Assembly: GCA_020634515.1 (NCBI GenBank)
Contig: JACKBL010000001.1
Coordinates: forward strand, 145,268-209,267
From: Ardenticatenales bacterium
Lineage (GTDB): Bacteria > Chloroflexota > Anaerolineae > Promineifilales > Promineifilaceae
Direction of reading: 5' to 3'
Length of the DNA: 64,000 bases
Both the position numbers and the translations under genes were made by a program. Positions within the stretch are counted from its first letter, which is position 1; each line of letters opens with the position of its first letter. Under the pieces are notes generated by a model. That model was not told the origin of the DNA, made no database searches, and saw only the letters and a list, made by a program, of their open reading frames with translations. Below are positions 2,897 through 64,000 of this stretch, one piece after another.

Positions 2897-3034
2897 CCAT
2901 TCCTCCCACATTTTGAATAATGTTGCGCGGCGAGTATTTGAATCCAATGGGGGTTAAATATGAGTAGAGTTGGAAAGGAGACGAAGAAATATAGTGAGCA
3001 GCCACCACAATCCATATAAGGACCTCGAGTCTGG

Positions 3035-3138
3035 CGAAATCCACATATGGTGATCGGAGTCGAGGCTTTAGCCGGGTCAAACCCCATATGTGGGCCGGCT
3101 GAAGCCTCCACTCCCAAAAACGCCAGAGTCCAGTAAGG
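3035..3138. repeat. Family C MITE-like element (~100 bp, CTGGCG...CGCCAG termini)
   Basis: ctggcgaaatccacatatggtgatcggagtcgaggctttagccgggtcaaaccccatatgtgggccggctgaagcctccactcccaaaaacgccag. Near-identical copies occur at 46313-46412 (inverted) and 62950-63068. The internal inverted repeat is ggagtcgaggctttagccgg/ccggctgaagcctccactcc. Confidence 0.7.
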
Positions 3139-5767: not shown

Positions 5768-5832
5768 CCCTAACCGCCAGGTCAAATTGGTCCAATCTCC
5801 AGAGCGCGTTAGTAGTTACAAGTAACCGCTGC
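5768..5832. repeat. Family A repeat (half copy)
   Basis: aaattggtccaatctccagagcgcgttagtagttacaagtaaccgctgcc. Confidence 0.5.
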
Positions 5833-6011: not shown

Positions 6012-8831
6012 ATGAGTGCGAAGAAAGCCTTTGTCTTCTTGTTGTTGTTACTCGGCCTGACTGCCACGGCTGTGACCTATGCCTGGGAGCCGGTTCCCGT
6101 AAGCGAAGATCCCCTGGTTCGTATGCCAGGCACGCAGCCGGAACAGAACGTGTATCTGCCAAATTCAGACCAATGCTACAATTGTCATGGTGATTACGAT
6201 CCGGTCGTCGAACCGTGGCGCAATTGGTCAGGTTCGATGATGGCGCAAGCCTTGCGCGACTTTTTGTTTTGGCCTGCTACCACCGTCGCGGCGCAAGACG
6301 CCGTGTGGGCTGTGGGCGGACCTAATGCCACGGACATTTGCCTGCGCTGCCACACGCCAATTGGATGGCTGGGCGGACGGTCCGATCCTACTAACGGGTC
6401 GCTGTTGAGCGACGCGGATTTCGATGCTGTGCAATGCACATTTTGCCATCGGATGTACGATCCGTTTTTTGATACGACTTATGCCGGCACTCGTGAAGGC
6501 GATGACTGGTCCGGCTATTGGGATGAAACCGACGCCAGCGACATGCCATCCAGCGCCGCGGCATGGGAAACCTATCTCCAGGATAGCGTGGAAGCAGCCC
6601 ACATCACCCTGTTCAACGGACAATCATTTTTTGTCAACAACCAGCCGCCGGCCGGCTACATCGAAAATGGCGGCGGACAGTACTTTGTTAGCGATCAGAA
6701 CTTGAGACGCGCCTCGTTTGCTGATGCCGAGGCCAATCATGGTATGCTTTACAGTCGTTATCACAAGAGCAAGTACTTTTGCAGCACCTGCCACGATGTC
6801 TCCAATCCAGTTCTGCTCAACCTCAACGCCAACCCACAAGAGCCGTTGCCTAGCGAAACAGTGCCCGCTTACAGCTACTATCACGTGGAACGCACCTTCT
6901 CTGAGTTCATGCTTTCCGCTTATGGGCAGGCGGGGGGCGCGCCAGGTGTGGGGCCGTTTGCGCCGGAAATCTTCGATACGTCGCATCCCGGCGATGTCAT
7001 TGCCTCTTGTCAGGATTGCCACCTGCGGGACATGCCCGGCAAGGGGGCTGACAAGAATGGCGCTGTCTTACGCCCGGTAGAAAGTGTTGAGCACCCACAG
7101 AGTGGCGTTCCTCAGCACGACCTGACGGGTGGCAATATGTGGGTGCCAGCCATATTGGCCAGCACAGTGCCCGGTTCACCCAATTACGACAGCGTCAATG
7201 ATGCTTTGCTCAATCAGGGGCCAGAATTACTGACGCTTGATCTGAATGCCGGCCTGGGGTTAGACCCGGATGCATTGTTGGCCGGTGTAGCGCGCGCGCA
7301 GCAAAATCTGCACGATGCTGCCGGCATCACGGACTTCCTTTATGAGCCGGGGAGTGGCGAGGTTTCATTCCGGCTGCAAAATCAAACCGGCCACAAACTG
7401 TTGTCCGGCTTTCCCGAAGGTCGCCGCATGTTCGTGAACATCAGGGCCTATGTCGGCGAAGCGTTGCTTTGGGAAGTCAACCCCTATGATGAAACCGTGG
7501 GGACATTGAAGGGTTTACCGCCGGCCTATTCACCGGATAGCCCGCCCCTGGCGGAACATGAGTTTTACGTAGATGCGTTGGTCTACGAAGTTCATCTGTC
7601 CAGTGACCTTACGGGGGAAGAAAAGACGTTCCACGTGGCTTTGAGTACACACCGCGACAAAGATAATCGTATTCCGCCGCGCGGCTTTCTGATTGATGAG
7701 GCTGCCGCGCGGCTGGTGGATCCGGCATGGATGGGTTCCTCGGCGCCGGATTACTTCACGGCGGCGGAATATGCGGGTGGATATGACGCCGTTACCTTGA
7801 GTGACTATGGCATCGCCTTGCCTGGAGCAGACCGGGTGGAGGTTTACCTCTACTACCAGACAACCAGCCGCGAGTACGTGACGTTCTTGCGCGACGAGAT
7901 CAACGGGACGGGTAATCTAACGTTGTGGAACCCGCCTCCTTCTGGGGAACCGGAAGCATACATTGCGCAGACAGACCCCTTCTTCGCACAATTGGCTGCC
8001 TGGGGAGACACGGTCTGGCAATTATGGGAGCATAATCGGGACTTGCCGGGCGCCGCGCCTGTGTTCATGGTGGGTGCGTCCTGGCAACTCGTTCAAGATG
8101 ATGGCTATGCCGTGCAATATGATGGTTGGCGCGGCGGCGAAGACGCGGACGCATTTGGTGGCGGTTTCCGCGCGGCGGATGCTGCCGGTCAATGGATTGT
8201 CTATCGCGCAACGCAACCATCCAACTACGTGACTTTGCTCGTCTGCCGCGGGCCTGATCAAGGATTGGCCTACCCGCTGATTGACGGGCAGTTCCAGGGG
8301 ATATTGGATCTGTATGCGCCAACTGCCGGTTGTCAGGAGGCGGTGACTTACACCGGATTAACGCCAACGCCGCACACGGTTGTGGTGCTGGCTTCTGGCC
8401 TGGGCAATCCCCATGCGACGGGCAGTGAGGTGCGTCTGGATGGCTTTGGGAGCGGGGGGGGAGTGGTAGATGACGACAGTCCGGCTGTGATCTACGGTTC
8501 CTGGAGCGGCATGGAATTGCCTCAGGCGAGCGGCGGTACGCTGCGGATGGCCACGCGGGCGAATGCCGGCATTACATTTAATGTCACCGGCGATCGCGTC
8601 GTCTGGTTATCGGCGTTTTGTCCTGTTTGCGGCGAAGCAGCGCTGTACGTGGATGACGTCTACCAGGCGACGGTAGATACATACAGTCCAACCTGGCTAT
8701 TCCAGCAGTCGGTTGTCGTCGCGGACTTGCCGCCGGGCGCACACAGTATCGAAATTCGGGCGACGGGCACCAAGAATCCTGCTTCCGCCGGCACGCTCGT
8801 CGTCTTTGACGGTTTCGCGTCGGTCCCCTAA
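6012..8831 (+). CDS. Secreted multi-haem c-type cytochrome (5 CXXCH) with a large C-terminal domain of unknown function
   Basis: Signal peptide MSAKKAFVFLLLLLGLTATAVTYA. Haem-binding motifs CYNCH, CLRCH, CTFCH, CSTCH and CQDCH all fall in the first ~360 aa. The remaining ~580 aa have no recognisable motifs. Confidence 0.8.
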   Translation: MSAKKAFVFLLLLLGLTATAVTYAWEPVPVSEDPLVRMPGTQPEQNVYLPNSDQCYNCHGDYDPVVEPWRNWSGSMMAQALRDFLFWPATTVAAQDAVWAVGGPNATDICLRCHTPIGWLGGRSDPTNGSLLSDADFDAVQCTFCHRMYDPFFDTTYAGTREGDDWSGYWDETDASDMPSSAAAWETYLQDSVEAAHITLFNGQSFFVNNQPPAGYIENGGGQYFVSDQNLRRASFADAEANHGMLYSRYHKSKYFCSTCHDVSNPVLLNLNANPQEPLPSETVPAYSYYHVERTFSEFMLSAYGQAGGAPGVGPFAPEIFDTSHPGDVIASCQDCHLRDMPGKGADKNGAVLRPVESVEHPQSGVPQHDLTGGNMWVPAILASTVPGSPNYDSVNDALLNQGPELLTLDLNAGLGLDPDALLAGVARAQQNLHDAAGITDFLYEPGSGEVSFRLQNQTGHKLLSGFPEGRRMFVNIRAYVGEALLWEVNPYDETVGTLKGLPPAYSPDSPPLAEHEFYVDALVYEVHLSSDLTGEEKTFHVALSTHRDKDNRIPPRGFLIDEAAARLVDPAWMGSSAPDYFTAAEYAGGYDAVTLSDYGIALPGADRVEVYLYYQTTSREYVTFLRDEINGTGNLTLWNPPPSGEPEAYIAQTDPFFAQLAAWGDTVWQLWEHNRDLPGAAPVFMVGASWQLVQDDGYAVQYDGWRGGEDADAFGGGFRAADAAGQWIVYRATQPSNYVTLLVCRGPDQGLAYPLIDGQFQGILDLYAPTAGCQEAVTYTGLTPTPHTVVVLASGLGNPHATGSEVRLDGFGSGGGVVDDDSPAVIYGSWSGMELPQASGGTLRMATRANAGITFNVTGDRVVWLSAFCPVCGEAALYVDDVYQATVDTYSPTWLFQQSVVVADLPPGAHSIEIRATGTKNPASAGTLVVFDGFASVP

Positions 8832-10744: not shown

Positions 10745-10960
10745 TAACGACCTCGTGAAACCTTCCCGGAAGCTCGTGGCTCAAGCCACTTCGCGTTAAA
10801 ACAGCTTCCGGGAAGGTGGTTGTGAAACCTTCCCGGAAGCTCGGACTCAAGCCATTTCGCGTTAAAACAGCTTCCGGGAAGGTGGTTGTGAAACCTTCCC
10901 GGAAGCTCGGACTCAAGCCATTTCGCGTTAAAGCAGCTTCCGGGAAGGTGGTGGCGCGTG
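10745..10960. repeat. Family B hairpin repeat, 3 tandem units of ~72 bp (CTTCCCGGAAGC ... GCTTCCGGGAAGG)
   Basis: gaaaccttcccggaagctcg..actcaagcca.ttcgcgttaaaacagcttccgggaaggtggttgt repeated three times. Each unit is an imperfect hairpin. Confidence 0.7.
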
Positions 10961-10961
10961 T

Positions 10962-12149
10962 TTACGGCAACTGCCCCGTAACAAAGCGGCGGGCGGTTTC
11001 GGCGAGGACGGCAGCACCAACGGGAATGACGCTCTCGTCGATGTCGAAAACGTCCGTATGGTGATGGCGGACGACTCCATCCGGTGTGGCTGCGCCGAGC
11101 ATGAACATGGCGCCTTGGGCGGCCTGGGCCATATAGGCGAAATCTTCCGCGCCCATGCCAAATTCCATGTCCGTTACGTCGTCTTCGCCGACCAGATCAA
11201 GGGCTGTCTGGCGCATCCAGTCGTTGACTTGAGGCGCGTTGTAGAGGGCGGGGTAGCCTTTGTTAATTTTTAACTCGTAGGCCCCCCCCATGAGGGTGCT
11301 GAGGCGGAGGGCGTTTTCTACTTCCGCCCAGAGCTTTTGGCGCACATCGTCGTGGTGGGAGCGGATGGTGCCTTCGAGCAGGACTTCGTTGGGGATGACG
11401 TTGGTGGTGGAGCCGCCTTCGATGTGGCCGAGGCTGACGACGCAGGGGCGCAGGGGGTTGATGAGGCGGGAGGGGATGGCGTAGAGTGCCGGCAAAATCG
11501 ACCCCAACATATGAATCGGATCAGAACCATTGTGCGGGTAAGCGCCATGCCCTCCATCGCCGCGCACCCAGGCGCGGAACGAATCAACCGCGGCCAGGCT
11601 GTACTCATCGTGGAAGAAACAGAGGCCGGCAGGCCGATCCGAGGCCACATGCAGGGCAATCACCGCGTCCAATCCGTCCAGGGCATCATCGGCGATCATG
11701 GCTGTGGCTCCGCTGACGCCATCCTCGTCGAACGCTTCTTCGGACGGTTGAAAGAGAAAGCGCACCGTGCCCCGCCACTTATCCATCTCCTCCGCCTGGC
11801 TTTGTTTGAGCAAATGGGCCACGCCCAGCAAAATGGCCGTGTGGGCGTCGTGGCCGCAGGCGTGCATCACGCCGGCATTTTGGGACGAATAGGGTCGGCC
11901 CGTTTTTTCCAAAATGGGCAGGGCATCCATGTCCGCGCGAATGCCAATAACAGGCCCGTCGCCGCTGCCGATTTCCGCGACCACGCCAGTGCGGCCCACA
12001 CCGGTGCGCGGCTGCAAACCAATTTCGCGCAGGGTGTCCGCCACCAGGGCGGCGGTGCGGAACTCCTGAAAGCTCAGCTCAGGGTGTTGATGAATGTCGC
12101 GGCGAATACGGATCAGTTCGCCGGCTATGCGTTGTGCTTTCTCTAGCAT
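10962..12149 (-). CDS. M20D-family amidohydrolase (N-acyl-amino acid amidohydrolase / hippurate hydrolase-like)
   Basis: DIHQHPELSFQEFRTAALVADTL...MHACGHDAHTAILLGVAHLL signature. Start at MLEKAQRI (ATG 12149, GGAGA RBS). The track ORF extends to 12299. Confidence 0.85.
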   Translation of the reverse strand: MLEKAQRIAGELIRIRRDIHQHPELSFQEFRTAALVADTLREIGLQPRTGVGRTGVVAEIGSGDGPVIGIRADMDALPILEKTGRPYSSQNAGVMHACGHDAHTAILLGVAHLLKQSQAEEMDKWRGTVRFLFQPSEEAFDEDGVSGATAMIADDALDGLDAVIALHVASDRPAGLCFFHDEYSLAAVDSFRAWVRGDGGHGAYPHNGSDPIHMLGSILPALYAIPSRLINPLRPCVVSLGHIEGGSTTNVIPNEVLLEGTIRSHHDDVRQKLWAEVENALRLSTLMGGAYELKINKGYPALYNAPQVNDWMRQTALDLVGEDDVTDMEFGMGAEDFAYMAQAAQGAMFMLGAATPDGVVRHHHTDVFDIDESVIPVGAAVLAETARRFVTGQLP

Positions 12150-13435: not shown

Positions 13436-13482
13436 CAGCAACTGCTAAGCCAGATTGGACCAATTTTCAGAGAGCGGCAGTA
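13436..13482. repeat. Family A repeat (compact copy)
   Basis: caactgctaagccagattggaccaattttcagagagcggcagtagttg. Confidence 0.5.
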
Positions 13483-13542
13483 GTTGCCTGCTTCGGACCT
13501 TCCTGGAAGCCTTGTCCGCTTCCAGAAAGATGAATATCGGCA

Positions 13543-19519: not shown

Positions 19520-19539
19520 AAGGACGTCTCCTATGAAAA

Positions 19540-19607
19540 TAATCTTCCCGGAAGCTCATGCACGGATGATAGCCCTGGGGAGCAGCTTCCGGGAAGATGT
19601 TGTCATT
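19540..19607. repeat. Family B hairpin repeat (single unit)
   Basis: aatcttcccggaagctcatgcacggatgatagccctggggagcagcttccgggaagatg. Confidence 0.55.
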
Positions 19608-19710
19608 GATGGTGGTGCGCCGCCGCGCATGAAGTCTCCTGGCCGGTGGCCGTGCGCGCTTGCCTGGATTATAGCGCAAGCAGGCGCGGACGCGAGCAGG
19701 CGAGACTTTC

Positions 19711-33904: not shown

Positions 33905-33992
33905 TTTATCTTGTTGAGTAACTGCTAGGCCAGATTGGACCAATTTCACCAGAGAAAATTGGTCCAATCTCCAGAGAGCGTTAGTAGTTCCG
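33905..33992. repeat. Family A repeat (full copy, two inverted ATTGGaCCAAT cores)
   Basis: gtaactgctaggccagattggaccaatttcaccagagaaaattggtccaatctccagagagcgttagtagttcc. Confidence 0.6.
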
Positions 33993-34054
33993 CGAAACGA
34001 AGAGTTCTACCCCGCTCGCATAGTTCACTTCAGTCTACCCGGAACGTTTTCTCG

Positions 34055-39664: not shown

Positions 39665-39789
39665 ATAACACCATCTTCTGGTAAGAGGTCTGACCAGTTG
39701 GTGGCAGTATAAACGATTATGGTGTTTTTGTCTAGGGGAAAAACCTTCCAGGAAGCTACTTGAACTTTAAGAAATAGCGTAACTACGCG

Positions 39790-39835
39790 CTTTTTGAAAA
39801 TTGGTCCAATCTGGCTTAGCCGTTATGAAATAACT
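39790..39835. repeat. Family A repeat (half copy)
   Basis: gaaaattggtccaatctggcttagccgttatgaaataacttcgg. Confidence 0.5.
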
Positions 39836-43800: not shown

Positions 43801-43814
43801 AATTTGCTCATGTA

Positions 43815-43905
43815 CCAACAAACCTTCCCGGAAGCTCGATTTCAAGCCCCCAGCGTCTCGTCATTGAAGTCCTTGCGCGGCCAGACAGCTTCTGGGAAGG
43901 TGGTC
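43815..43905. repeat. Family B hairpin repeat (single unit)
   Basis: aaaccttcccggaagctcgatttcaagcccccagcgtctcgtcattgaagtccttgcgcggccagacagcttctgggaaggtggtcgtgaacc. Confidence 0.55.
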
Positions 43906-46312: not shown

Positions 46313-46412
46313 CGGGACTCTGGCGTTTTTGCAGTGGAGGCTTCAGCCGGTCCACACATGGCGGTTGACCCGGCTAAAGCCTCGACTCCGTTCACCCTAT
46401 GTGGAATTCGCC
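46313..46412. repeat. Family C MITE-like element (inverted copy)
   Basis: ctggcgtttttgcagtggaggcttcagccggtccacacatggcggttgacccggctaaagcctcgactccgttcaccctatgtggaattcgccag. Confidence 0.7.
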
Positions 46413-46466
46413 AGACTCAAGTTAAAAGGGTCCAATCTTCTCGATTGGACCCTTCTTCAGGGGAAA

Positions 46467-55069: not shown

Positions 55070-55894
55070 TTAGGGGGTGCGGGGTTGCCGGCAAATAAAG
55101 ACGCCGGACAATTTGCTGACGTGGAACGCGCCATGTTCGGCGATGTGTTGCCGCAGTATTTGCGTCAGGGTTGCAACCAGGTCATCCCAGGTGACGCCTG
55201 ACGGCAGCATCTGTTCAATTCGTGCGCGTGTCGTTGCCAGGTAGTCAATGACGGGCTGGGGTTGGGGGAAGACGAAGGCGGCGTGCAGATCAAACCGTTC
55301 GACGTGGGCGAAATGGCGTACCAAAGCAGGCGTACCGTTTTCCAGGCCAAAGGCGTTGCCGGCATTTTGCCAGATCGTTTGCGGTCCTGTTCCCCCCAGA
55401 CGCCGGATGGCGTCCTGGCGCAGGTGATTCAATTCAGCCATGGATTGAGCGCTGTTGGTGACGGCCAACAGGCAGCCAGTGGGCCGCAGGACGCGGGCGA
55501 TTTCCGCCAGGGCGGCGCCGCGGTCGGGGACATGATAGAGCATGTGGTTGGCGAGGACCACGTCGAAGGCGTGGCCGGCGAGCGGGAGGCGTTGCGCGTC
55601 CAGATTAACGCGGTCGGGGGGCGGGGCCGGCAGTCCGCGGAGCATCCCCAGCGAGAGGTCGGCGGCGATGTAGTGGCCGCACCGCTGCCGTGCCGCCGCG
55701 ACGTAGCCGCCAGAGCCGCAGCCCACATCGATGACGCGCTCCGTGCCGTGCCAGGGGATTTTGTCTAGGACCCAGGCGGTGAAGTCTACCTGGGGCACGG
55801 TGTACAGGGCGTGCGTGCGAATGCGGACGTTGAGGTTTTCGTCGTTTTGGTATTGTTGTTTGACGTAGGCGACGTCGTCGCTGCGAATGGTCAT
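55070..55894 (-). CDS. Class I SAM-dependent methyltransferase (Methyltransf_11/25-like)
   Basis: ...RVIDVGCGSGGYVAAA... (motif I), ...FDVVLANHMLYHVPD..., ...VLRPTGCLLAV... Start at MTIRSDD (ATG 55894, AGGAG RBS). Confidence 0.8.
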   Translation of the reverse strand: MTIRSDDVAYVKQQYQNDENLNVRIRTHALYTVPQVDFTAWVLDKIPWHGTERVIDVGCGSGGYVAAARQRCGHYIAADLSLGMLRGLPAPPPDRVNLDAQRLPLAGHAFDVVLANHMLYHVPDRGAALAEIARVLRPTGCLLAVTNSAQSMAELNHLRQDAIRRLGGTGPQTIWQNAGNAFGLENGTPALVRHFAHVERFDLHAAFVFPQPQPVIDYLATTRARIEQMLPSGVTWDDLVATLTQILRQHIAEHGAFHVSKLSGVFICRQPRTP

Positions 55895-55904
55895 GGGTAC
55901 TCCT

Positions 55905-56000
55905 GGAAAATGCCGAAAGGCCAAAAACCGGGTTTTTACACATGAACCACTCTGGTAATTTCGGCCGGACACTCGAAAAACCCGGTTTTTTCAGTGAACT
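55905..56000. terminator. Long hairpin made of complementary AAAAACCGGGTTTTT / AAAAACCCGGTTTTT units (same family as 3867-3941)
   Basis: The units sit about 45 nt apart, between the GNAT stop and the methyltransferase start on the minus strand. Confidence 0.45.
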
Positions 56001-56545
56001 CACGAATCAATAACCAGCAAACGTTCCAATATGATACCCGTTTTGCCCGTCTGTGGCAGTCGGATTTCCCGGCTGATAGTGAAACCCAACCGCTGGTAAA
56101 GGGCCAGGGCGCGGACATTATCCGGCATCACGCCAATCTCCAGGAGAGGCCGGCGCATGTGGCGGGCGATGTTCGTGAGGACGGCGATCAGAGCCGTGCC
56201 GATGCCCTGGTCGCGGTAGGCTGGGGCAACCAACAGATCGGCGATTTCGGCGGCGTTGGCATAAATCTGAAGCTGACCACGCCCTACGATAGCCTCCTGA
56301 ACCGTGGCGATGAGAGGGAAGCAGCGCCCCCGGGTATAAGCGGCGAGCGCGCGGAGGCACGCTTCGTCGAAAGCGCGAAAAGGGTGGTCGGGATAGCAGG
56401 CGGCGTGCAAGGGACGGATGTCGGCGGGCCGCAGGGGGCGGATGATCAGCCTGGGGGGGGCAGGAGGCGGGGGCGTAAGGAGAAACGGGGGCAACGATTC
56501 CTCCGCGTTTTTTGGGCGTCGCGGATCATCCGTTGATGGGGCCAT
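56000..56545 (-). CDS. GNAT-family N-acetyltransferase
   Basis: ...LLVAPAYRDQGIGTALIAVLTNIARHMRRPLLEIGVMPDNVRALALYQRLGF... acetyl-CoA binding motif (Q/RxxGxG/A). Confidence 0.8.
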   Translation of the reverse strand: MAPSTDDPRRPKNAEESLPPFLLTPPPPAPPRLIIRPLRPADIRPLHAACYPDHPFRAFDEACLRALAAYTRGRCFPLIATVQEAIVGRGQLQIYANAAEIADLLVAPAYRDQGIGTALIAVLTNIARHMRRPLLEIGVMPDNVRALALYQRLGFTISREIRLPQTGKTGIILERLLVIDS

Positions 56546-57326
56546 GATGGTTTGTGCCGGGCAGGTGCAGCAGCGGCAGACTGGCGGCGATGCGCTCCGG
56601 GGTTGAAAGTTCTAGCGTGAGGATAGGGGGCGGGGTTATCTGGCGAAAGAGTGGCAGCACCTCTCGATAATTAATCACGCCGTTGTCCAGAGACCAGTGC
56701 AGGTCAATGTGGCCGTCGTGGTTATTCAGATGGCAACTGTAGAGCCAGGGGGAGAGCGCGGATACCCAGTCCGTCAGTGGTACGTGGGAGAAGAGGGTAG
56801 CATGGGAGACGTCAAGGCAGGCGCGCACGTATGGGTTGTCCACTTCGCGCAGGATGTCCGTGAGCAGGGAGGGTTCATCTTCCCACAGATTTTCCATTAC
56901 CACGGTGATGCCATAGTGGGCGGCGCGCTGGCCTAGCTTGCGCCAGAAGGCGACCTGCCGCTGGTGCCAGCCGGGACGGTAGTTGGGGAACCGCAGCAGG
57001 CCCATATAGTTCAGGTGAAAGACGACGGAAGACGCGCCCAATTCGGCGGCGATAAACAGGTTTTGCAGATACCGTTTGCGCGTGAGGGCGACGATGTCCG
57101 GGTCGAGGCTGCCGCTGACCATATCATAGAACGCGCCGTGGAGACCCAGACCGCCGGTGAATCCCGCCAGAATTTGCTGATGTTCACGCAAGACGGTGCG
57201 CCAGTCGCCGGCGAGGATGTCCGGTTCGGCGAAGGCGTATAGCTCTAGTCCGCAGCCGAGTTCTTCGGCCCAATGGCGGTAGGTGCGCGTTTGATGACGG
57301 TCGGTGGCAAAATAGACTTTATCCAC
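56526..57326 (-). CDS. Sugar phosphate isomerase/epimerase (xylose isomerase-like TIM barrel)
   Basis: ...AAELGASSVVFHLNYM...HYGITVVMENLWEDEP...ACLDVSHATL... Overlaps the GNAT gene by 20 nt. Confidence 0.8.
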   Translation of the reverse strand: MDKVYFATDRHQTRTYRHWAEELGCGLELYAFAEPDILAGDWRTVLREHQQILAGFTGGLGLHGAFYDMVSGSLDPDIVALTRKRYLQNLFIAAELGASSVVFHLNYMGLLRFPNYRPGWHQRQVAFWRKLGQRAAHYGITVVMENLWEDEPSLLTDILREVDNPYVRACLDVSHATLFSHVPLTDWVSALSPWLYSCHLNNHDGHIDLHWSLDNGVINYREVLPLFRQITPPPILTLELSTPERIAASLPLLHLPGTNHHGPING

Positions 57327-57687
57327 GTTGATCCTGGTTCCCCCGCGATTCCCAGCCCAGCGTTTTGCCTGTGGCTGGCGTGATGTTGGATGCCAGCCGC
57401 GAATATGGTCAATCTCGGTAGAGCCAGTTTATTGGGCACGAATGACCGAATTGGGCCAGCGTTCGCGCGGCTGTGGTCATTCGGGTCCGCTTTGCGTCAG
57501 GGCGTGGGGTGGTGTCACACATTATGCTGCCCACAACCAAATGGGTGAAACTCATGCCGGATTTTGCGTCTAATGAGATTGGTGATCGAATGGCGCAAGT
57601 CTACTCGCGCCGACGGAGTCCGTCAATAAACAATGGGAACTCAGTACTAGGCATGGGACATCATGGCGCGCCGGGCACTCGCAGACG

Positions 57688-57716
57688 AAAAAGCCCTGCG
57701 ATGCGCAGGGCTTTTT
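57688..57716. terminator. Rho-independent terminator (AAAAAGCCCTGCG-atg-CGCAGGGCTTTTT), bidirectional
   Basis: Perfect 8-bp GC stem flanked by A-run and T-run, in a 680-bp non-coding region. Confidence 0.6.
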
Positions 57717-57884
57717 CAGGGGGACAGATAAAAAGGAGGAATGTAAATTGAGTGTCAATATTAGCCAGCCTGCTCTTTGTGCGTCCAGACCGGCACCATA
57801 GGGAGAACGTGACCTTAGTATAGGCCGTTGTGCCGGCATCCTCAAGAAAGTCTGATACAATCTGTGTGTAAAATGGTTTACAGA

Positions 57885-57995
57885 AAGTAATTGCCAGGCC
57901 AGATTGGACCAATTCTCTCTGGTGAAAATGGTCATGGAGCGCGCGAAATTGGTCCAATCTCCAGAGAGCGTTAGTCGTTACGACAGAAATACGAG
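57885..57995. repeat. Family A repeat (full copy)
   Basis: gccaggccagattggaccaattctctctggtgaaaatggtcatggagcgcgcgaaattggtccaatctccagagagcgttagtcgttacgac. Confidence 0.6.
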
Positions 57996-58011
57996 TCGGT
58001 AGCAGCCAACA

Positions 58012-58839
58012 ATGGAAACACGCTGTCCCAATTGTCAACAACCTTTGCTCTCCGGCGATACTGCCTGCTGGCAGTGTGGCTGGCAACTGGCGGAACCCGT
58101 TCCCGCGGCGGCGGATGCGACGGTGCTGTCGGCCCCGCCCGCGCGCGCCCAGGTTCCCGCGCTTTGGATTTACGCTGCTTTGACCGCTTTCCTCGTGATT
58201 ATGGCCGGCATTTTGCTGCATCAACTCGGAAAACAACCGTTGGTGCAGGTGTCCGCCGGGGGGCGAATGCCGGCAGACTGGCAGCGGGTGACCACGTATG
58301 GGCGCACGCTCACGCTGGACCTGCCGCCGGGATGGACGTGGCTGGACCAGGAAGATCCATCGCAGGCGGATGCTTTTGCCGCTTTGCTGGCGCGGCGGCA
58401 GGGGTTGCTGTCGTTGACCTATCCCCTGGGGCGGCAAGACCCGAATGCGGCGCTCATATTCGCCGCCGCGCCCGCCGCCGTCATTGATCTGGCGGCGGAG
58501 CCGGTGACGCTGGTGGTGATTCGCAGCCCTGTTTTGAGCCGGTTGTCGGCGGAGGCGGCGCTGGCGACGGTGGCGGAGGCGGATGTGGAACTGGTAGACG
58601 GGCGGCAGGTTCCCAATTACGATAAAACGCATACCAGTTTTTTGCTGGAGATGGATGTGGCCGGCGTAGGGCGAGTAAGATGCCGGCAACAATTCTTCCA
58701 CGACGAACCGGACAGCCTGCTCCTGGCTGTCTGTGGCCACCCGCAACAATTCCGCTTTTACGCCCAACAAGTGGAGGAAATCCTCGCCACCGTCCAGCGA
58801 CTACACCCCCAGGCATTCCATCATCGCCCACCCAGTTGA
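58012..58839 (+). CDS. Hypothetical membrane-anchored protein with N-terminal zinc ribbon
   Basis: CPNCQQ...CWQCGW zinc ribbon, one TM helix (LWIYAALTAFLVIMAGILL), and a ~200-aa Ala-rich extracytoplasmic domain. Confidence 0.6.
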   Translation: METRCPNCQQPLLSGDTACWQCGWQLAEPVPAAADATVLSAPPARAQVPALWIYAALTAFLVIMAGILLHQLGKQPLVQVSAGGRMPADWQRVTTYGRTLTLDLPPGWTWLDQEDPSQADAFAALLARRQGLLSLTYPLGRQDPNAALIFAAAPAAVIDLAAEPVTLVVIRSPVLSRLSAEAALATVAEADVELVDGRQVPNYDKTHTSFLLEMDVAGVGRVRCRQQFFHDEPDSLLLAVCGHPQQFRFYAQQVEEILATVQRLHPQAFHHRPPS

Positions 58840-58874
58840 AAGGTTCACGATGGGTAAGACTACACAGCCTATGC

Positions 58875-58985
58875 GTACATGGTCCAACAAACCTTCCCGG
58901 AAGCTCAATGTCAGGCTAAAAGCGTCTCAAAATGCAGCGGCATTTCGCATGGAAACAGCTTTCGGAAAGATGGGAGTGAGCCGTC
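58875..58985. repeat. Family B hairpin repeat (degenerate copy)
   Basis: caaaccttcccggaagctcaatgtcaggctaaaagcgtctc...aaacagctttcggaaagatggg. Confidence 0.5.
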
Positions 58986-59114
58986 CCACGATGGCATGGC
59001 ATTGGGCATGGCACGAAACCCTGTTTTATCCGCATTTCCGCGTCTTTCTGGCTTCCTTTCCCCAGGTCCATACCCGGCTTGACGCACTCCTGTCCACTCA
59101 GTACAATCCCCCCT

Positions 59115-60086
59115 ATGTCGCAAGAACCTGATGGGCTTAATTTCAATTATGGTGGCCAGGCCGTGATCGAAGGCGTCATGATGCGCGGTTCGCAGGCGCT
59201 GGCCGTTTCCGTACGCAATCCTCATGGCGAGATAGTCACCCACGTCGAACCTTTGAACCAGGCCATCTATGGCAGCAAGATGGCGCGCCTCCCCTTTGCG
59301 CGTGGTCTGACCCTGTTGTGGGATGCGCTGGGGCTGGGCATTAAGGCGCTCATGTTTTCGGCGGAAGTGGCCGTGCCCGAAGAAGAAAAAGCGGACCCGC
59401 AAGGCAAGGCGTTTGAAGGGCCGGTGCAGGTCGGAACGGTCGCCATCTCCCTCGCTTTTGCCATCGGGCTGTTTTTCGTCTTGCCCGTTTTCCTGGCGAG
59501 CCTCATTGAGGGCTGGCTGCATTTGCGCGAGTCGCAGGTTGTCAGCAACCTGATTGAAGGGGGCATCCGCCTGTTAATCCTGGTGGGCTACATCTGGAGC
59601 ATAGGCCTGCTGCCGGACATTCGCCGTTTGTATGGGTATCATGGGGCGGAGCATAAAACGATTAACGCTTATGAGGCAGGCGCGGCGCTCACGCCGGAGT
59701 CTGTGGCCCGTTTTCCGCTGGAGCATCCGCGCTGTGGTACGGCTTTTTTGTTGACGGTGGTGATCGTTTCCATTCTTTTGTACAGTTTTTTCCCGCCGTT
59801 GAACCTGGCGCTGCGTATTGTCTCGCGCCTGTTGTTGCTGCCTGTGGTTGCCGGCATTGCTTACGAGATCATCCGTTTCTCCGCCAAACATCTTGATAAC
59901 GTCTTCATTCGCATCATCATAAAGCCCAACCTGGCTTTGCAGCGGCTGACCACTCGTGAACCAGACCAGACCATGTTGGAAGTCGCCATCACCGCCTTTC
60001 AACAGATGATGGCCCGTGAAAGCGGGACTGTTTACGCAGAACCCGCGCTCGTGCTCGCGGAAACATCAGACGCAACCCCTCGTTAG
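59115..60086 (+). CDS. DUF1385-family membrane protein (YqhQ-like)
   Basis: N-terminal NYGGQAVIEGVMMRG signature of DUF1385, followed by multiple TM helices. Start at MSQEPDG (ATG 59115). Confidence 0.8.
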   Translation: MSQEPDGLNFNYGGQAVIEGVMMRGSQALAVSVRNPHGEIVTHVEPLNQAIYGSKMARLPFARGLTLLWDALGLGIKALMFSAEVAVPEEEKADPQGKAFEGPVQVGTVAISLAFAIGLFFVLPVFLASLIEGWLHLRESQVVSNLIEGGIRLLILVGYIWSIGLLPDIRRLYGYHGAEHKTINAYEAGAALTPESVARFPLEHPRCGTAFLLTVVIVSILLYSFFPPLNLALRIVSRLLLLPVVAGIAYEIIRFSAKHLDNVFIRIIIKPNLALQRLTTREPDQTMLEVAITAFQQMMARESGTVYAEPALVLAETSDATPR

Positions 60087-60382
60087 AATTCATATACCGC
60101 CGGCGCGCCACCCTGCCCCAGAGATGCGGGCAATCTCTCCGCTTTGGTTTCTTGCCCGACTGCGCAGCTTCGCGCAACCGCCGATTTGCGCGTTTCCCGC
60201 GCCGATTGGTCTACCAGTGGCGCGCTGACTCCGCCAGTGTTCGCTGCATGCCGTATCGCAGCTTGACGCGCACCCGCTCGCCGGGGGTGTGCTTACTATC
60301 CCCGTCACCATATCGGAGATGCGTCGGGCATCCCGGCATGGCAATGTGGGCGATCAGGTCCTGCTGAGGTGAAAGGAACAGT

Positions 60383-61024
60383 ATGTCCAGGGGTGAAAAG
60401 CATAATCAGACCGGGTTACAATTTTACGGTGATTGGGAATTGGAGAAAGCGGTAGCCGCTTTTCGTAAAGCGACGGCTGCTGAACCGGATAATCCCGAAT
60501 ATCACCTCAATCTGGCGCGCGCGTTTGCCCGTTCCAGCAGCTTCGACGAGGCGATTCAGGCATTGGGCGAGTACCTGCGCACGGAGACGGACGCCCAACT
60601 CGCCAGCCGCTACGAACGCCTGTTTTCCTCGGCGCTGGATGACGTGGAAAGCGCCCTCATTGAGGGCATGCGCCGGTTGGAGTTATCCATTCAGTACACC
60701 GGCAAGGCGATCCAGATGTGGTTGGAGTATCGCATCACGATTGGGCGGCGGCCGTTGCGCGTGACGAAGCCAGAGTTGTGGGCGGCGGCGCTGGCCTACA
60801 CGATTGTGAAGGTGAATTTCCTGCAACTTAAACTGGGCGCGGTGGCGGCGGCCTTTTCCGTCAGCGAGCGGTCGCTAAAGGAACGGTTTGGTGAACTGGT
60901 GCAGGCTTTGGATTTAATGCCGGCAGATTACCGTTACTTCGTGGGTGATCAAAACCCGCTGGACAAACTCGTAGAAGCGGCGCAGATCATGGAAGAACTG
61001 GACCAGCGCTTCATGGAAGACTGA
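60383..61024 (+). CDS. Hypothetical protein with TPR-like N-terminal helical repeats
   Basis: LQFYGDWELEKAVAAFRKATAAEPDNPEYHLNLARAFARSSSFDEAIQAL is a TPR-like motif. No other family assignment. Confidence 0.55.
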   Translation: MSRGEKHNQTGLQFYGDWELEKAVAAFRKATAAEPDNPEYHLNLARAFARSSSFDEAIQALGEYLRTETDAQLASRYERLFSSALDDVESALIEGMRRLELSIQYTGKAIQMWLEYRITIGRRPLRVTKPELWAAALAYTIVKVNFLQLKLGAVAAAFSVSERSLKERFGELVQALDLMPADYRYFVGDQNPLDKLVEAAQIMEELDQRFMED

Positions 61025-61029
61025 GGAAT

Positions 61030-61435
61030 AATGAGAACATCTTCCCGGAAGCTGTTACCCAGGACTATCGTCTGTGACGAAGCTTCCGGGAAGATCATTG
61101 AGAACATCTTCCCGGAAGCTGTTACCCAGGACTATCGTCTGTGACGAAGCTTCCGGGAAGATCATTGAGAACATCTTCCCGGAAGCTATTACCCAGGACT
61201 ATCATCAGTGATGAAGCTTCCGGGAAGATCATTGAGAACATCTTCCGGAAGATTAGGACTATCATCAGTGACGAAGCTTCCGGGAAGATCATTGAGAACA
61301 TCTTCCCGGAAGCTGTTACCCAGGACTATCGTCTGTGACGAAGCTTCCGGGAAGATCATTGAGAACATCTTCCCGGAAGCTGTTACCCAGGACTATCATC
61401 TGTGATGAAGCTTCCGGGAAGATCTTTTACAGAGG
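61030..61435. repeat. Tandem array of 6 x ~66-bp Family B hairpin units (not CRISPR: no spacers)
   Basis: Unit attgagaacatcttcccggaagctgttacccaggactatcgtctgtgacgaagcttccgggaagatc repeated six times with point variants and one internal deletion in unit 4. Confidence 0.8.
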
Positions 61436-61563
61436 AGTCACCACGCCACTGCGCGACACCACCAACAAACGAAAATAGCGCGGTTGACAGGCGGCGCTTC
61501 TCCCAACTGTCAACTGACCACTACCCACTGTCAACTGACCACCATTTACAAAGGAGTCACTCA

Positions 61564-62505
61564 ATGTTAAACAAAATTGCACTTTATGGCGCGGGCAACG
61601 TCGGCGCTACAACGGGCCACTGGCTGGCGAACAAGGAAGTCGGCGACATCGTCATGTTCGACATTTTTGGGCAGGTGGCTGCCGGCAAAGCCCTCGACCT
61701 CTACGAAGCAGGACCGGCCATCGGCTTTGATTCCCGCATCACCGGCAGCAGCGACGTAAGCATCATCGAAGGCGCGGACGTGGTCGTCGTCACCGCCGGC
61801 GTGCCGCGCAAGAAGGACCCCGTCACCGGCAAATTCCCCAGCCGCGATGAACTGGTGAAGATCAACCAGGACGTGATGACGGTCGTCTCCGAAAACATCA
61901 AGAAGTACGCCCCGGACAGTATCGTTATCGTTGTCACCAACCCACTGGACGCCATGTGCCACGTGATCAAGGAGATCACCGGCTTCCCGCGCGAACGCAT
62001 CATCGGCCAGGCGGGGGCGCTGGATACGGCGCGCTACAAGACCTTCATTGCCATGGAACTGGGCGTGAGCGTGGAAGATGTACACGGCATCGTCCTCGGC
62101 GGGCACGGGGACACGATGGTTCCGCTGCCCCGACATACGTCGGTCGCCGGCATTCCCGTCACCGAACTCATCTCCCCGGAAAAACTGGACGCCATCATCC
62201 AACGCACCGCCAAAGGGGGCGGCGAAATCGTCGGCCTGCTCGGCTACAGCGGCTACTACGCCCCCGCCGCCGGCGCCGCCATCATGGTCGAATCCATCCT
62301 CAAAGACAAAAAGCGCGTCATCCCCTCCGCCATCTACACCCAGGGCGAATACGGCTACCATGACCTCTTCATCGGTCTGCCCGCCGTTCTCGGTCGCCGG
62401 GGCGTGGAACACATCATCGAAATGGACCTGAACGAAACGGAACGCGCCATGCTCGACCACTCCGCCGAAGCGGTCCGCTCGGTCGTGCAAGTGTTAGGCT
62501 ATTAG
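61564..62505 (+). CDS. mdh: Malate dehydrogenase, LDH-like family
   Basis: MLNKIALYGAGNVGATTGHWLA...VVVTAGVPRKK...IVVTNPLDAM...LGGHGDTMVPL... The substrate-specificity Arg (GVPRK) indicates MDH. Very similar to Chloroflexus MDH. AAAGGAG RBS before the ATG. Confidence 0.9.
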   Translation: MLNKIALYGAGNVGATTGHWLANKEVGDIVMFDIFGQVAAGKALDLYEAGPAIGFDSRITGSSDVSIIEGADVVVVTAGVPRKKDPVTGKFPSRDELVKINQDVMTVVSENIKKYAPDSIVIVVTNPLDAMCHVIKEITGFPRERIIGQAGALDTARYKTFIAMELGVSVEDVHGIVLGGHGDTMVPLPRHTSVAGIPVTELISPEKLDAIIQRTAKGGGEIVGLLGYSGYYAPAAGAAIMVESILKDKKRVIPSAIYTQGEYGYHDLFIGLPAVLGRRGVEHIIEMDLNETERAMLDHSAEAVRSVVQVLGY

Positions 62506-62566
62506 GCGTTTGCAAGGTATGAGAGGCAAGCGAGTCTTGCCCCTCATACCTCATACCTCATCAAAG

Positions 62567-62920
62567 ATGTCTACTTCGCATCAGGAAATGCCGATTTTTA
62601 CGCGCACTTTTGATTTCCTGACCTGGCTGTTGCCGCAAACGAATCACTTCCCGCGCGCCCATCGGCACACGTTTACACAGCGACTGTTGGAGGCCGCATT
62701 TGATCTGCGAGAACGACTCGAAGAAGCAAATTGGCAGCAGGGCAACGCCCGGCTGCAAAAACTGCAGGAAGCAGATGAAGCCTTATCCAAAGTGCGGCTG
62801 TATCTGCGTCTGGCATATCGCTGGAAGTGGCTCACGCCAGGCCAATACGAACATGCGGCAGCGATGATGACGGAAATCGGGCGCTTACTTGGCGGATGGA
62901 AAAAGAAAACTGGCAGGTAA
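62567..62920 (+). CDS. avd: DGR accessory variability determinant (Avd; four-helix-bundle protein)
   Basis: ...FDFLTWLLPQTNHFPRAHRHTFTQRLLEAAFDLRERLEEA...MTEIGRLLGGWKKKTGR parallels Bordetella phage bAvd (…EVGRILGSWIARVNRKG). It lies upstream of the TR and a DGR-type RT. Start uncertain: ATG 62567 or 62588. Confidence 0.75.
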   Translation: MSTSHQEMPIFTRTFDFLTWLLPQTNHFPRAHRHTFTQRLLEAAFDLRERLEEANWQQGNARLQKLQEADEALSKVRLYLRLAYRWKWLTPGQYEHAAAMMTEIGRLLGGWKKKTGR

Positions 62921-62949
62921 CGGCGTCACTTCACCATACATTATTGATC

Positions 62950-63068
62950 AGGAGCTGGAGTCTGGCGAAAACCACATATGGTGGTCGGAGTCGAGACTTT
63001 AGCCGGATCAAACCGCCATATGTGGGCCGGCTGAAGCCTCCACTCCAAAAACGCCAGTGTCCAGTCAG
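62950..63068. repeat. Family C MITE-like element (third copy) inserted between avd and the DGR template repeat
   Basis: ctggcgaaaaccacatatggtggtcggagtcgagactttagccggatcaaaccgccatatgtgggccggctgaagcctccactccaaaaacgccag. Confidence 0.7.
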
Positions 63069-63089
63069 GAAGTGCAACCTCCAGCCGCT

Positions 63090-63260
63090 CACACCGGCTG
63101 ATGTTGGGGGCAAAACCCATAACGGCTGCTCCGCCCGCAACAGGAACGACCCGCACAACAACTTCAACGACAACAACGGGTTTCGGGTGGCAGTTTCCAC
63201 ACTTCTCCTGCAGGTTGTGTCCCAACCGGAATTGCCTGGCGGGTACGCCTTCCGGGCCGA
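63090..63260 (+). other. Candidate DGR template repeat (TR), AAC-rich, CLec-type
   Basis: ggctgctccgcccgcaacaggaacgacccgcacaacaacttcaacgacaacaacgggtttcgggtggca... In frame it reads GCSARNRNDPHNNFNDNNGFRVAV, the signature of CLec-fold DGR variable regions (…RSANRNRNNPDNRNNNIGFRC…). Boundaries are approximate because no VR is available for alignment. Confidence 0.6.
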
Positions 63261-63389
63261 GGTGAGAAATGGCGGGGTTTTGTCCTGGCCGCGCCCAAAG
63301 CGTCAGCCGCGGGCCGGGCAAATAACAACGGGCCGCGTCTCCCCGGTTCGTCCCTGAGACGCGGCCACTTTTCACAAACCGTGTTGGCT

Positions 63390-63535
63390 CTGCAGAATTT
63401 AAGCGGGAGTGGAGGCTTTAGCAGAATTTAAGCGGGAGTAGAGGCTTTAGCAGAATTTAAGCGGGAGTGGAGGCTTTAGCCGGAACGGTTGCAGAATTTA
63501 AGCGGGAGTGGAGGCTTTAGCCGGAACGGTTGCGA
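63390..63535. repeat. Tandem ~30-bp repeats (GCAGAATTTAAGCGGGAGTGGAGGCTTTAG x4, last two with an 11-bp insert)
   Basis: Direct repeats lie between the TR and the RT start. The GGAGGCTTTAGCCGG core matches the Family C MITE core. Confidence 0.75.
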
Positions 63536-63595
63536 CAGAATCTCCTCTCCGCCCCCCTATCAGGAGATGACCCCACGAGTTCCCCCAAAGCCACC

Positions 63596-64000
63596 TTGTT
63601 TCACGCCCTCTGTAGTTGGGATAACTTGCTCCAGGCTTACCAGCAGGCCAGTCGCCGCAAACGGGGGCGGGGCGATGTGGCCGCCTTTGAATATCGCCTG
63701 GAAGACAACCTGCACGACTTGCAGCAAGAGCTGCGCGCTCGCACTTACACTCCGGGCCGCTACAACAGCTTTTTCATCCACGAACCGAAGCGGCGGCTGA
63801 TCAGCGCGGCGCCGTTTCGGGACCGTGTGGTGCATCACGCCTTGTGTAACGTTATCGAACCGATTTTTGAGCGCGCGTTCATCTACGATTCTTACGCCAA
63901 CCGTGTGGGCAAGGGCACGCACCGCGCCCTGGACCGGGCGCAGCAGTTTGCCCGCCGTTTCCCCTACGTGCTGCAATGCGACTTGCGCCAGTTCTTTCCC
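63596..64000 (+). CDS. DGR-type reverse transcriptase, N-terminal ~135 aa (3' truncated by window end)
   Basis: Frame 2, open to the window end: ...SWDNLLQAYQQASRRKRGRGDVAAFEYRLEDNLHDLQQELRARTYTPGRYNSFFIHEPKRRLISAAPFRDRVVHHALCNVIEPIFERAFIYDSYANRVGKGTHRAL... is collinear with Bordetella phage Brt (WENLLDAY...KRR...[31 protein letters not shown]...YTYACRPDKGTHAGV). No ATG/GTG in frame after the upstream stop at 63518; TTG 63596 or TTG 63530 are the possible starts. The overlapping track ORF 63489-63800 is in another frame and is rejected. Confidence 0.85.
   Translation, partial: MFHALCSWDNLLQAYQQASRRKRGRGDVAAFEYRLEDNLHDLQQELRARTYTPGRYNSFFIHEPKRRLISAAPFRDRVVHHALCNVIEPIFERAFIYDSYANRVGKGTHRALDRAQQFARRFPYVLQCDLRQFFP

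Follow-up and report, generated by a model that had tools for sequence, protein, structure and literature searches.

The diversity-generating retroelement (DGR) of the Bordetella phage BPP-1, in which the order is mtd-avd-TR-brt, is the prototype of its kind and a described system with which the locus reported here can be compared, not least at the level of its RNA, where the 3′ end of the template repeat (TR) pairs with the spacer to give a template:primer duplex and the sequence upstream of the TR pairs with the spacer to give a second duplex (Handa et al., bioRxiv 10.1101/2023.10.23.563531). As regards the arrangement of the genes, Wu et al. have catalogued 48 DGR arrangements around a core of avd, TR and reverse transcriptase (RT), including cases where the target is on the reverse strand, is non-adjacent or is remote (Wu et al. 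2018, NAR, PMC5758913). As regards the host and the kind of protein that is diversified, Dore et al. have described DGRs of multicellular bacteria, including filamentous Chloroflexi, that diversify NACHT/nSTAND-CLec proteins proposed to be antigen sensors (Dore et al. 2024, PNAS, PMC10907252); one of the RT clades in the DGR phylogeny of that study is clade 5D (PMC10907252).

The locus considered here lies at the far end of a 64,000-nt stretch of an Ardenticatenales bacterium assembly (this whole stretch is referred to below as the window) and runs on into contigs from other assemblies that continue it. It is best read as a complete and recently active DGR, in the order avd, TR, structured spacer and RT, followed by a convergent target gene, and we would put the probability of this reading at roughly 0.93. 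The gene content, the pairing of the TR with a variable repeat (VR), the adenine specificity of the differences between them, the diversity of the VR between populations and the covariation in the RNA all support it directly: the RT is of the DGR type, the avd gene sits beside the TR, there is an IMH/IMH* pair with a GC repeat, and the VR is diversified. As an avd-TR-RT DGR diversifying a STAND/NACHT-CLec sensor in filamentous Chloroflexota, the locus belongs to a kind that is already known, while the example itself is new.

With the BPP-1 system it has in common Avd, a TR, a DGR-type RT and adenine-specific substitutions, a VR at the 3′ end of a target with the C-type-lectin fold, an IMH and IMH*, a GC inverted repeat 3′ of the VR and (here from covariation) the template:primer duplex, together with the one that the spacer forms with sequence lying upstream of the TR. 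The differences are mainly of arrangement and setting. The target lies downstream of the RT on the opposite strand, whereas that of BPP-1 lies upstream on the same strand; the element is cellular, that of BPP-1 phage-borne, and where BPP-1 diversifies a tail-fibre protein the present target is a NACHT protein of 1002 aa; in the second duplex, the strand upstream of the TR is intergenic, 2 nt before it, whereas in BPP-1 it falls inside avd; and the TR is shorter, at 87 nt. The hairpin is also placed differently, being some 49 nt from the end of the VR, whereas in BPP-1 it reportedly follows directly after the IMH.

The DGRs of Dore et al. (PMC10907252) resemble this one in that the VR falls in an FGE-type CLec domain at the C-terminus of a target whose central domain is NACHT, in that the host is a Chloroflexota MAG (Anaerolineales/Ardenticatenales), and in that the VR varies between natural populations. 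Two targets are common in their clade, whereas a single target is seen here, and the N-terminus of the present target has two predicted TM segments and a coiled coil, with no recognised effector domain. Architecture B1 of Wu et al. (PMC5758913) has the same avd-TR-RT core order, with a target whose placement varies, and reverse-strand and non-upstream targets are catalogued in the same work; set against it, the convergent layout is common to the closest of the relatives examined for the present locus (RT 78-79% identical), whereas a relative with an RT 74% identical (L032) has the canonical upstream target. Among the former, L031 (RT 78% identical) shows the arrangement avd-TR-RT> <target with a 996-aa NACHT-FGE target and an adenine-specific VR, L030 (RT 79%) and L035 (RT 78%) likewise have the convergent layout and an adenine-specific VR, and elsewhere among the relatives there are cases with a pair of VRs, or with the TR placed downstream of the RT. 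These are examples rather than a census of architectures: automated VR detection in 51 metagenome relatives, many of them on contigs too short for the purpose, found an adenine-specific VR in seven, and its coverage was of relatives other than those with the TR downstream of the RT.

When an adenine-masked pattern of the TR (CTTCNNCGNCNNCNNCGGGTTTCGGGT) was run against the genome contig collection it picked out 17 loci, the best being L006, with 90% identity over 64 nt of the TR. On this Anaerolineales MAG contig (CAZJBA010000140.1, positions 1-620) there is a target VR and, some 160 nt further on, a TR with 90% identity to that of the window. No avd separates the two, and the contig, which is 8 kb long, has no RT; next to them, as in the window, is a gene for a lactate/malate dehydrogenase.

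Table 1 Features of the locus. Positions are those of the window, or window-equivalent positions (window-eq.) for features read on the continuing contigs L022-L029.
Feature	Position	Strand	Basis and remarks
avd (accessory variability determinant)	62567..62920	+	117 aa from ATG 62567; NCBIfam NF033474, Pfam PF22296
Palindromic dispersed repeat	62947..63062	+	~105 nt, between avd and TR; repeat search; not DGR-specific
Predicted stop duplex	63107..63118 (GGGGCAAAACCC) with 63275-63286 (GGGTTTTGTCCT)	+	Complementarity search, covariation
TR	63121..63207	+	Aligned to VR of contigs L022-L029; between avd and RT
IMH* (3′ part of TR)	63178-63207	+	TR-VR alignment
Predicted template:primer duplex	TR strand 63200..63207 (CACTTCTC) with 63264-63271 (GAGAAATG)	+	Covariation
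Structured spacer RNA	63226..63365	+	nhmmer, RNAalifold, covariation
P1 hairpin	63226-63244/63247-63262	+	Spacer RNA
P2 helix	63286-63297/63310-63320	+	Spacer RNA
A-rich single strand AAATAACAAC	Between P2 and P3	+	Spacer RNA
P3 helix	63332-63346/63352-63365	+	Spacer RNA
Tandem array of palindromic-repeat half-units (GCAGAATTTAAGCGGGAGTGGAGGCTTTAGC..., GGAGTGGAGGCTTTAGCCGG)	63392..63531	+	Periods 29 and 41 nt; between spacer and RT start
DGR reverse transcriptase, 5′ part	63530..64000 (off window end)	+	Pfam RVT_1, E 2e-16
GC hairpin CTGGGGGGG-CTTT-GCCCCCCAG	window-eq. 64696-64717		8-9 bp G/C stem; contigs L022-L029
Target gene	window-eq. 64754-67762	-	1002 aa, convergent with RT; contigs L022-L029
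VR	window-eq. 64766-64852	-	TR alignment, contigs L022-L029

An earlier note on this DNA had picked out the stretch 63090-63260 as an A-rich template repeat dominated by AAC and AAT codons. The stretch does contain the TR, although the TR proper is narrower, and it also takes in two features of the RNA, namely the 5′ strand of a duplex (63107-63118) and the first hairpin of the spacer (63226-63262). Its A-richness and the predominance of AAC are real enough: the mutable block at 63139-63177 is 46% A, as against 20% for the window, and in the frame that gives GCSARNRNDPHNNFNDNNGFRVAVS the codon AAC occurs in phase eight times per 25 codons at 63112-63118, the highest count in all six frames of the 64 kb (mean 0.35; 99.9th percentile 4). 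AAT, on the other hand, is absent, the A-bearing codons being seven AAC, two GAC, one CAC and one AGG. Enumeration of the codons shows that none of these can be turned into a stop codon by substitution of adenine, which bears out the suggestion that the repeat is designed for adenine mutagenesis without the creation of stops. The mutable adenines of the TR number 18, distributed over 11 codons within the block just mentioned, and give it a coding capacity of about 3.3e10 protein variants.

The earlier note had also stated that no second copy of the repeat exists in the window. This was checked with an adenine-masked scan of both strands, in which the 76-nt core 63123-63198 was matched at its 57 non-A positions alone: the TR itself scores 57/57, the next best position in the 64 kb scores 34/57, and the maxima across 20 shuffled windows were 30-33/57, so that the statement holds. 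Nor was a VR found within the window by a tiled scan at ≥80%, by a general repeat search or by tblastn with the target protein. Where the earlier note went astray was in regarding the TR as an orphan. Look-ups of exact proteins, using the malate/lactate dehydrogenase encoded just upstream of avd and then the full RT, led to eight contigs (L022-L029, from ENA "WANG18-1" and other metagenome assemblies, and from the NCBI MAG GCA_020432705.1, Anaerolineales bacterium) that are 99-100% identical to the window over 55875-64000 and run on past its end; the MAGs concerned go under the names Anaerolineales bacterium and Ardenticatenales bacterium at NCBI. Expressed in window-equivalent coordinates (the L022 coordinate plus 56143), these contigs carry an 87-nt VR on the minus strand, 94 nt past the stop codon of the RT and 766 nt beyond the end of the window, about at the 3′ end of a target gene whose own stop codon lies 82 nt past that of the RT and 754 nt beyond the window end in every contig that reaches so far; the VR, the target and the hairpin discussed below were thus read on other assemblies of the same population, rather than on the window's own molecule.

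The TR looks orphaned because the window ends inside the RT gene, before the VR is reached, and the orphan appearance is simply an artefact of where the window was cut. The departure from the order target-avd-TR-RT is, by contrast, genuine, with the target lying downstream of the RT and convergent to it, and of the two alternatives that had been offered to account for it, an RT-proximal downstream target or a remote (trans) one, it is the downstream one that was found on the continuing contigs. The practical moral is that, when a partnerless TR is met at the edge of a window, the continuation of the contig should be consulted before the TR is called orphan or trans-acting.

Comparison of the TR with the VR over the 76-nt core shows differences at none of the 57 non-A positions, while of the 19 adenines 9-12 differ, according to the contig (Fisher p 6e-7 to 2e-9), so that the mismatches are adenine-specific; neither of the outcomes that the earlier note had named as refuting it, a VR inside the window or mismatches not specific to adenine, was therefore encountered. 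The adenines in question belong to the strand on which avd and the RT are also encoded, just as is expected of a transcribed template. There are three VR haplotypes at the DNA level among contigs L022-L029, and four at the protein level (YWLAPLNHFNDNS, SWSGPRDRFYDLY, YWLVPHDDFFDDG and YGNGPRHGFDGDY) among the eight full-length members, from different assemblies, of a 90%-identity cluster; the haplotypes differ only in TR-adenine codons, and none of the differences makes a stop. Since the RT gene shows only 0-1 nt differences among the same contigs, the four haplotypes imply that the DGR has been active within the time taken for these near-identical strains to diverge, and they lend added support to the published, still hypothetical role of DGR-diversified STAND proteins as antigen sensors that can adapt, in filamentous bacteria. 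At 63122 and again at 63199 every haplotype has the change A>C, and for this reason the exact ends of the cDNA are uncertain.

At their 3′ ends the TR and VR have in common a 22-nt block (GGGTTTCGGGTGGCAGTTTCC), after which three of nine positions differ (TR ACACTTCTC, VR cCAtTTgTC), and the homology ends after 63207. To judge from the sequences, this divergence is of the IMH*/IMH pattern. The earlier note had suggested looking for a GC hairpin as well as an IMH at the 3′ end of any VR, and both are present, the hairpin falling about 45-60 nt past the VR; CTCTGA-like repeats also occur 3′ of the target stop codon. The 81-nt region with the hairpin has a folding z of -3.6, and the arrangement is kept in the relatives L030 and L031 with a different stem sequence. 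It could equally well be that this hairpin is a bidirectional terminator between the two convergent genes.

At NCBI the target goes under the annotation "SUMF1/EgtB/PvdO family nonheme iron enzyme". Its central part is a NACHT domain (PF05729, aa 227-399, 41.1 bits where the cutoff is 26.7, E 2.2e-10) and its C-terminal part an FGE-sulfatase domain of the C-type-lectin fold (PF03781, aa 730-1002, E 1.2e-32), within which the VR, placed as it is at the 3′ end of the ORF, encodes aa 969-993 of the 1002. The N-terminus has two hydrophobic segments (about aa 23-72), predicted to be transmembrane, and beyond them a charged, coiled-coil-like stretch; no effector domain was recognised there by Pfam. 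The protein thus has the central STAND/NACHT NTPase domain of the bacterial NLR-like proteins, but it does not correspond to a described defence-protein model: in PADLOC it matched no bNACHT or Avs model, and gave weak matches at the level of the P-loop alone (PprDinG, 9e-6; PtuA, 9e-4). The locus is thus a clear case, found in nature, of a cellular Chloroflexota DGR by which the lectin-fold sensor of a NACHT protein, predicted to be anchored in the membrane, is hypermutated. One copy of the 1002-aa target is from a 1.2-Mb NCBI MAG contig. Separately from the VR, the target genes of L024 and L025 carry clusters of SNPs at nt 543-592, 886-912 and 2657-2724 of the 3009-nt ORF, one of which falls in the FGE-sulfatase domain, roughly 200 nt upstream of the VR; these clusters show no match to the TR, and may be due to recombination between strains or to chimeric assembly.

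Of the remaining genes, avd is recognised both by NCBIfam NF033474 (DivGenRetAVD, where it scores 93.1 bits and the cutoff is 80) and by Pfam bAvd (PF22296, E 1.9e-19), while PADLOC assigned its product to no defence family. Gene callers begin it at 62519, giving 133 aa, but the 117-aa version is the more likely because a GC-rich hairpin (GGTATGAGAGGCAAG...CTTGCCCCTCATACC, 62516-62550), which lies directly 3′ of the dehydrogenase stop codon, overlaps the N-terminal extension of the longer one. In RTs of the DGR type, the usual QG motif of motif 4 is replaced by (I/L)GxxxSQ; here the motif reads IGNLTSQ (LPIGNLTSQFW), at 6066-6100 of a contig (L001) that extends the RT of the window at 100% identity. 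The full RT (P0001) is 380 aa long, ends at window-equivalent 64672, and is 100% identical to that of the window in the part they share. A scan of 62400-64000 for promoters and terminators yielded nothing above the expectation from shuffles.

The 180 nt that follow the TR are strongly conserved in relatives in which the RT is merely 78-79% identical, and an nhmmer profile found the spacer in 30 related loci. Applied to 23 sequences, RNAalifold gave three helices comprising 34 pairs, 28 of them with compensatory changes. The template:primer duplex, which like the hairpins was not selected by complementarity, has compensatory changes in seven of its eight pairs and 91.3% of cells paired over 16 related DGRs, with co-varying versions in relatives such as CAAGTTTC/GAAACTTG and CATATTGC/GCAATATG, and its TR strand coincides with the segment in which IMH* and IMH differ. 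For the predicted stop duplex there are compensatory changes in eight of 12 pairs, and 94.7% of cells are paired in the 16-sequence alignment, although as its upstream strand was located by a search for complementarity these figures are to some extent a product of that search. Of 23 related loci, 21 have a complementary run of 10-14 bp, with the upstream strand at the expected place in 18; where the VR is known, this strand lies 0-7 nt before the start of TR-VR homology.

For the structure as a whole, 94.3% of cells are paired over 16 sequences, as compared with 78.6% for column shuffles (none of 500 reaching the observed value) and 44-60% for slid partners. At gathering thresholds no Rfam family matches any part of the window, and for 62900-63560 this holds even when the limit is relaxed to E<=1. 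Covariation speaks for both of the RNA elements that are found in the BPP-1 DGR, while their function would follow by analogy; in particular, the sequence evidence suggests that the upstream duplex is the analogue of the "cPRT stop" duplex of the Bordetella phage. The covariation also shows that the DGR RNA elements whose definition in the Bordetella phage is structural can be recognised in a distant Chloroflexota lineage, where they predict the 5′ boundary of the TR to within 2 nt.

Two repeats are interspersed with these elements. The first, lying after avd and ahead of the TR, has the look of a REP/MITE-type element: it has further copies at 3016-3119 (+) and 46315-46421 (-), with a mean column identity of 86% over the three, forms a long hairpin (RNA MFE -57.7 kcal/mol, z -5.5), and has no match in Rfam. 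The tandem array at 63392-63531 is built from one arm of this same palindromic repeat and is absent in L030 and L031. Assemblies of this one population differ in the distance from TR to RT, which is 286, 334, 356 or 441 nt, and this variation in the length of the array could be either real or the result of assembly collapse.

How far do these observations leave room for other readings? That the segment might be no template at all but a pseudogene fragment, derived by duplication from an FGE-sulfatase gene, is suggested by the tblastn match of the target protein at 63118-63207 (60% identity); yet every mismatch is at an adenine of the strand that also encodes avd and the RT, the homology is limited to 87 nt between conserved RNA duplexes, and the position between avd and the RT is the canonical one, so that this idea is scarcely conceivable and was rejected, the divergence being confined to adenines rather than random. 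Nearly as hard to credit is a TR that is truly orphaned, or that acts solely in trans, the similarity downstream not being a cognate VR. The lack of any VR within the 64-kb window would fit such a case, but it has to be set against complete identity at the 57 non-A positions combined with adenine-only substitutions at one and the same place after the RT in every contig reaching there, and it was on this adenine-specific VR in same-population contigs that the case was dismissed. It is a different matter to ask whether the TR, besides its adjacent target, also diversifies at least one remote target elsewhere in the genome, which is unlikely, although there are points in its favour: non-adjacent and remote targets are documented in cellular DGRs (PMC5758913), two targets are common in DGRs of the STAND-target clade (PMC10907252), and the relatives L048, L088 and L095 each have two adenine-specific VRs to one TR. 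Telling against it is that no further VR was found between 63 kb upstream and 10 kb downstream of the RT, where the best other adenine-masked score was 32-34/57. A protein search with the C-terminal 99 aa of the target also gave no other protein with the GCSAR...GFRVAVS scaffold among the 26 candidates scored, although this is weak evidence, as the full-length target cluster was itself missed. The joint proposition that the TR feeds a remote family of NLR-like sensors in trans and that the flanking repeat insertions modulate the frequency of diversification is more doubtful again.

There is also the question of whether the DGR might be a fossil, its TR-VR similarity dating from past activity and the element now being inactive. 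The insertion of a repeat between avd and the TR and the variable tandem array between the spacer and the RT, either of which could disturb the operon or the RNA, give this some colour. It is nevertheless very improbable, and was rejected on three grounds, namely the existence in near-identical strains, with RTs 0-1 nt apart, of four VR haplotypes that differ at TR-adenine codons without stops, the intact state of the avd, RT and target ORFs, and the likewise intact RNA pairing elements of the window.

On the preferred reading of an active DGR, a sequence of events can be proposed. The strand carrying avd, TR and RT would be transcribed and the RNA would fold such that the stop and template:primer duplexes bracket the template; by analogy with BPP-1, a complex of RT and Avd would then prime itself from the spacer next to 63271. 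The cDNA would be copied from about 63199 of the TR back to about 63121, with misincorporation opposite adenines, and synthesis would terminate, again as in BPP-1, at the upstream duplex 63107-63118/63275-63286. The points of priming and termination that we infer in this way agree with the observed TR-VR boundaries. Replacement of the VR by the cDNA (homing), once more by analogy with BPP-1, would presumably be guided by the IMH and the GC hairpin, and the outcome would be that 11 codons are varied on the ligand-binding face of the lectin fold of an NLR-like protein, with up to about 3e10 variants.

Lastly, the window contains other repeats away from the DGR itself. Upstream of the malate/lactate dehydrogenase gene there is a tandem array with a 67-nt period (60994-61494) that includes the palindrome AGCTTCCGGGAAG...CTTCCCGGAAGCT; related copies of its motif are found in intergenic positions at 10755-10977, 19528-19610, 43809-43859 and 58878-58928, and the copy number varies by assembly. 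A third dispersed family, centred around AATTGGTCCAATCTCCAGAGAGCG, occurs in both orientations, at 1644-1738, 5768-5826, 13437-13494, 33917-33998, 39788-39824 and 57886-57988.
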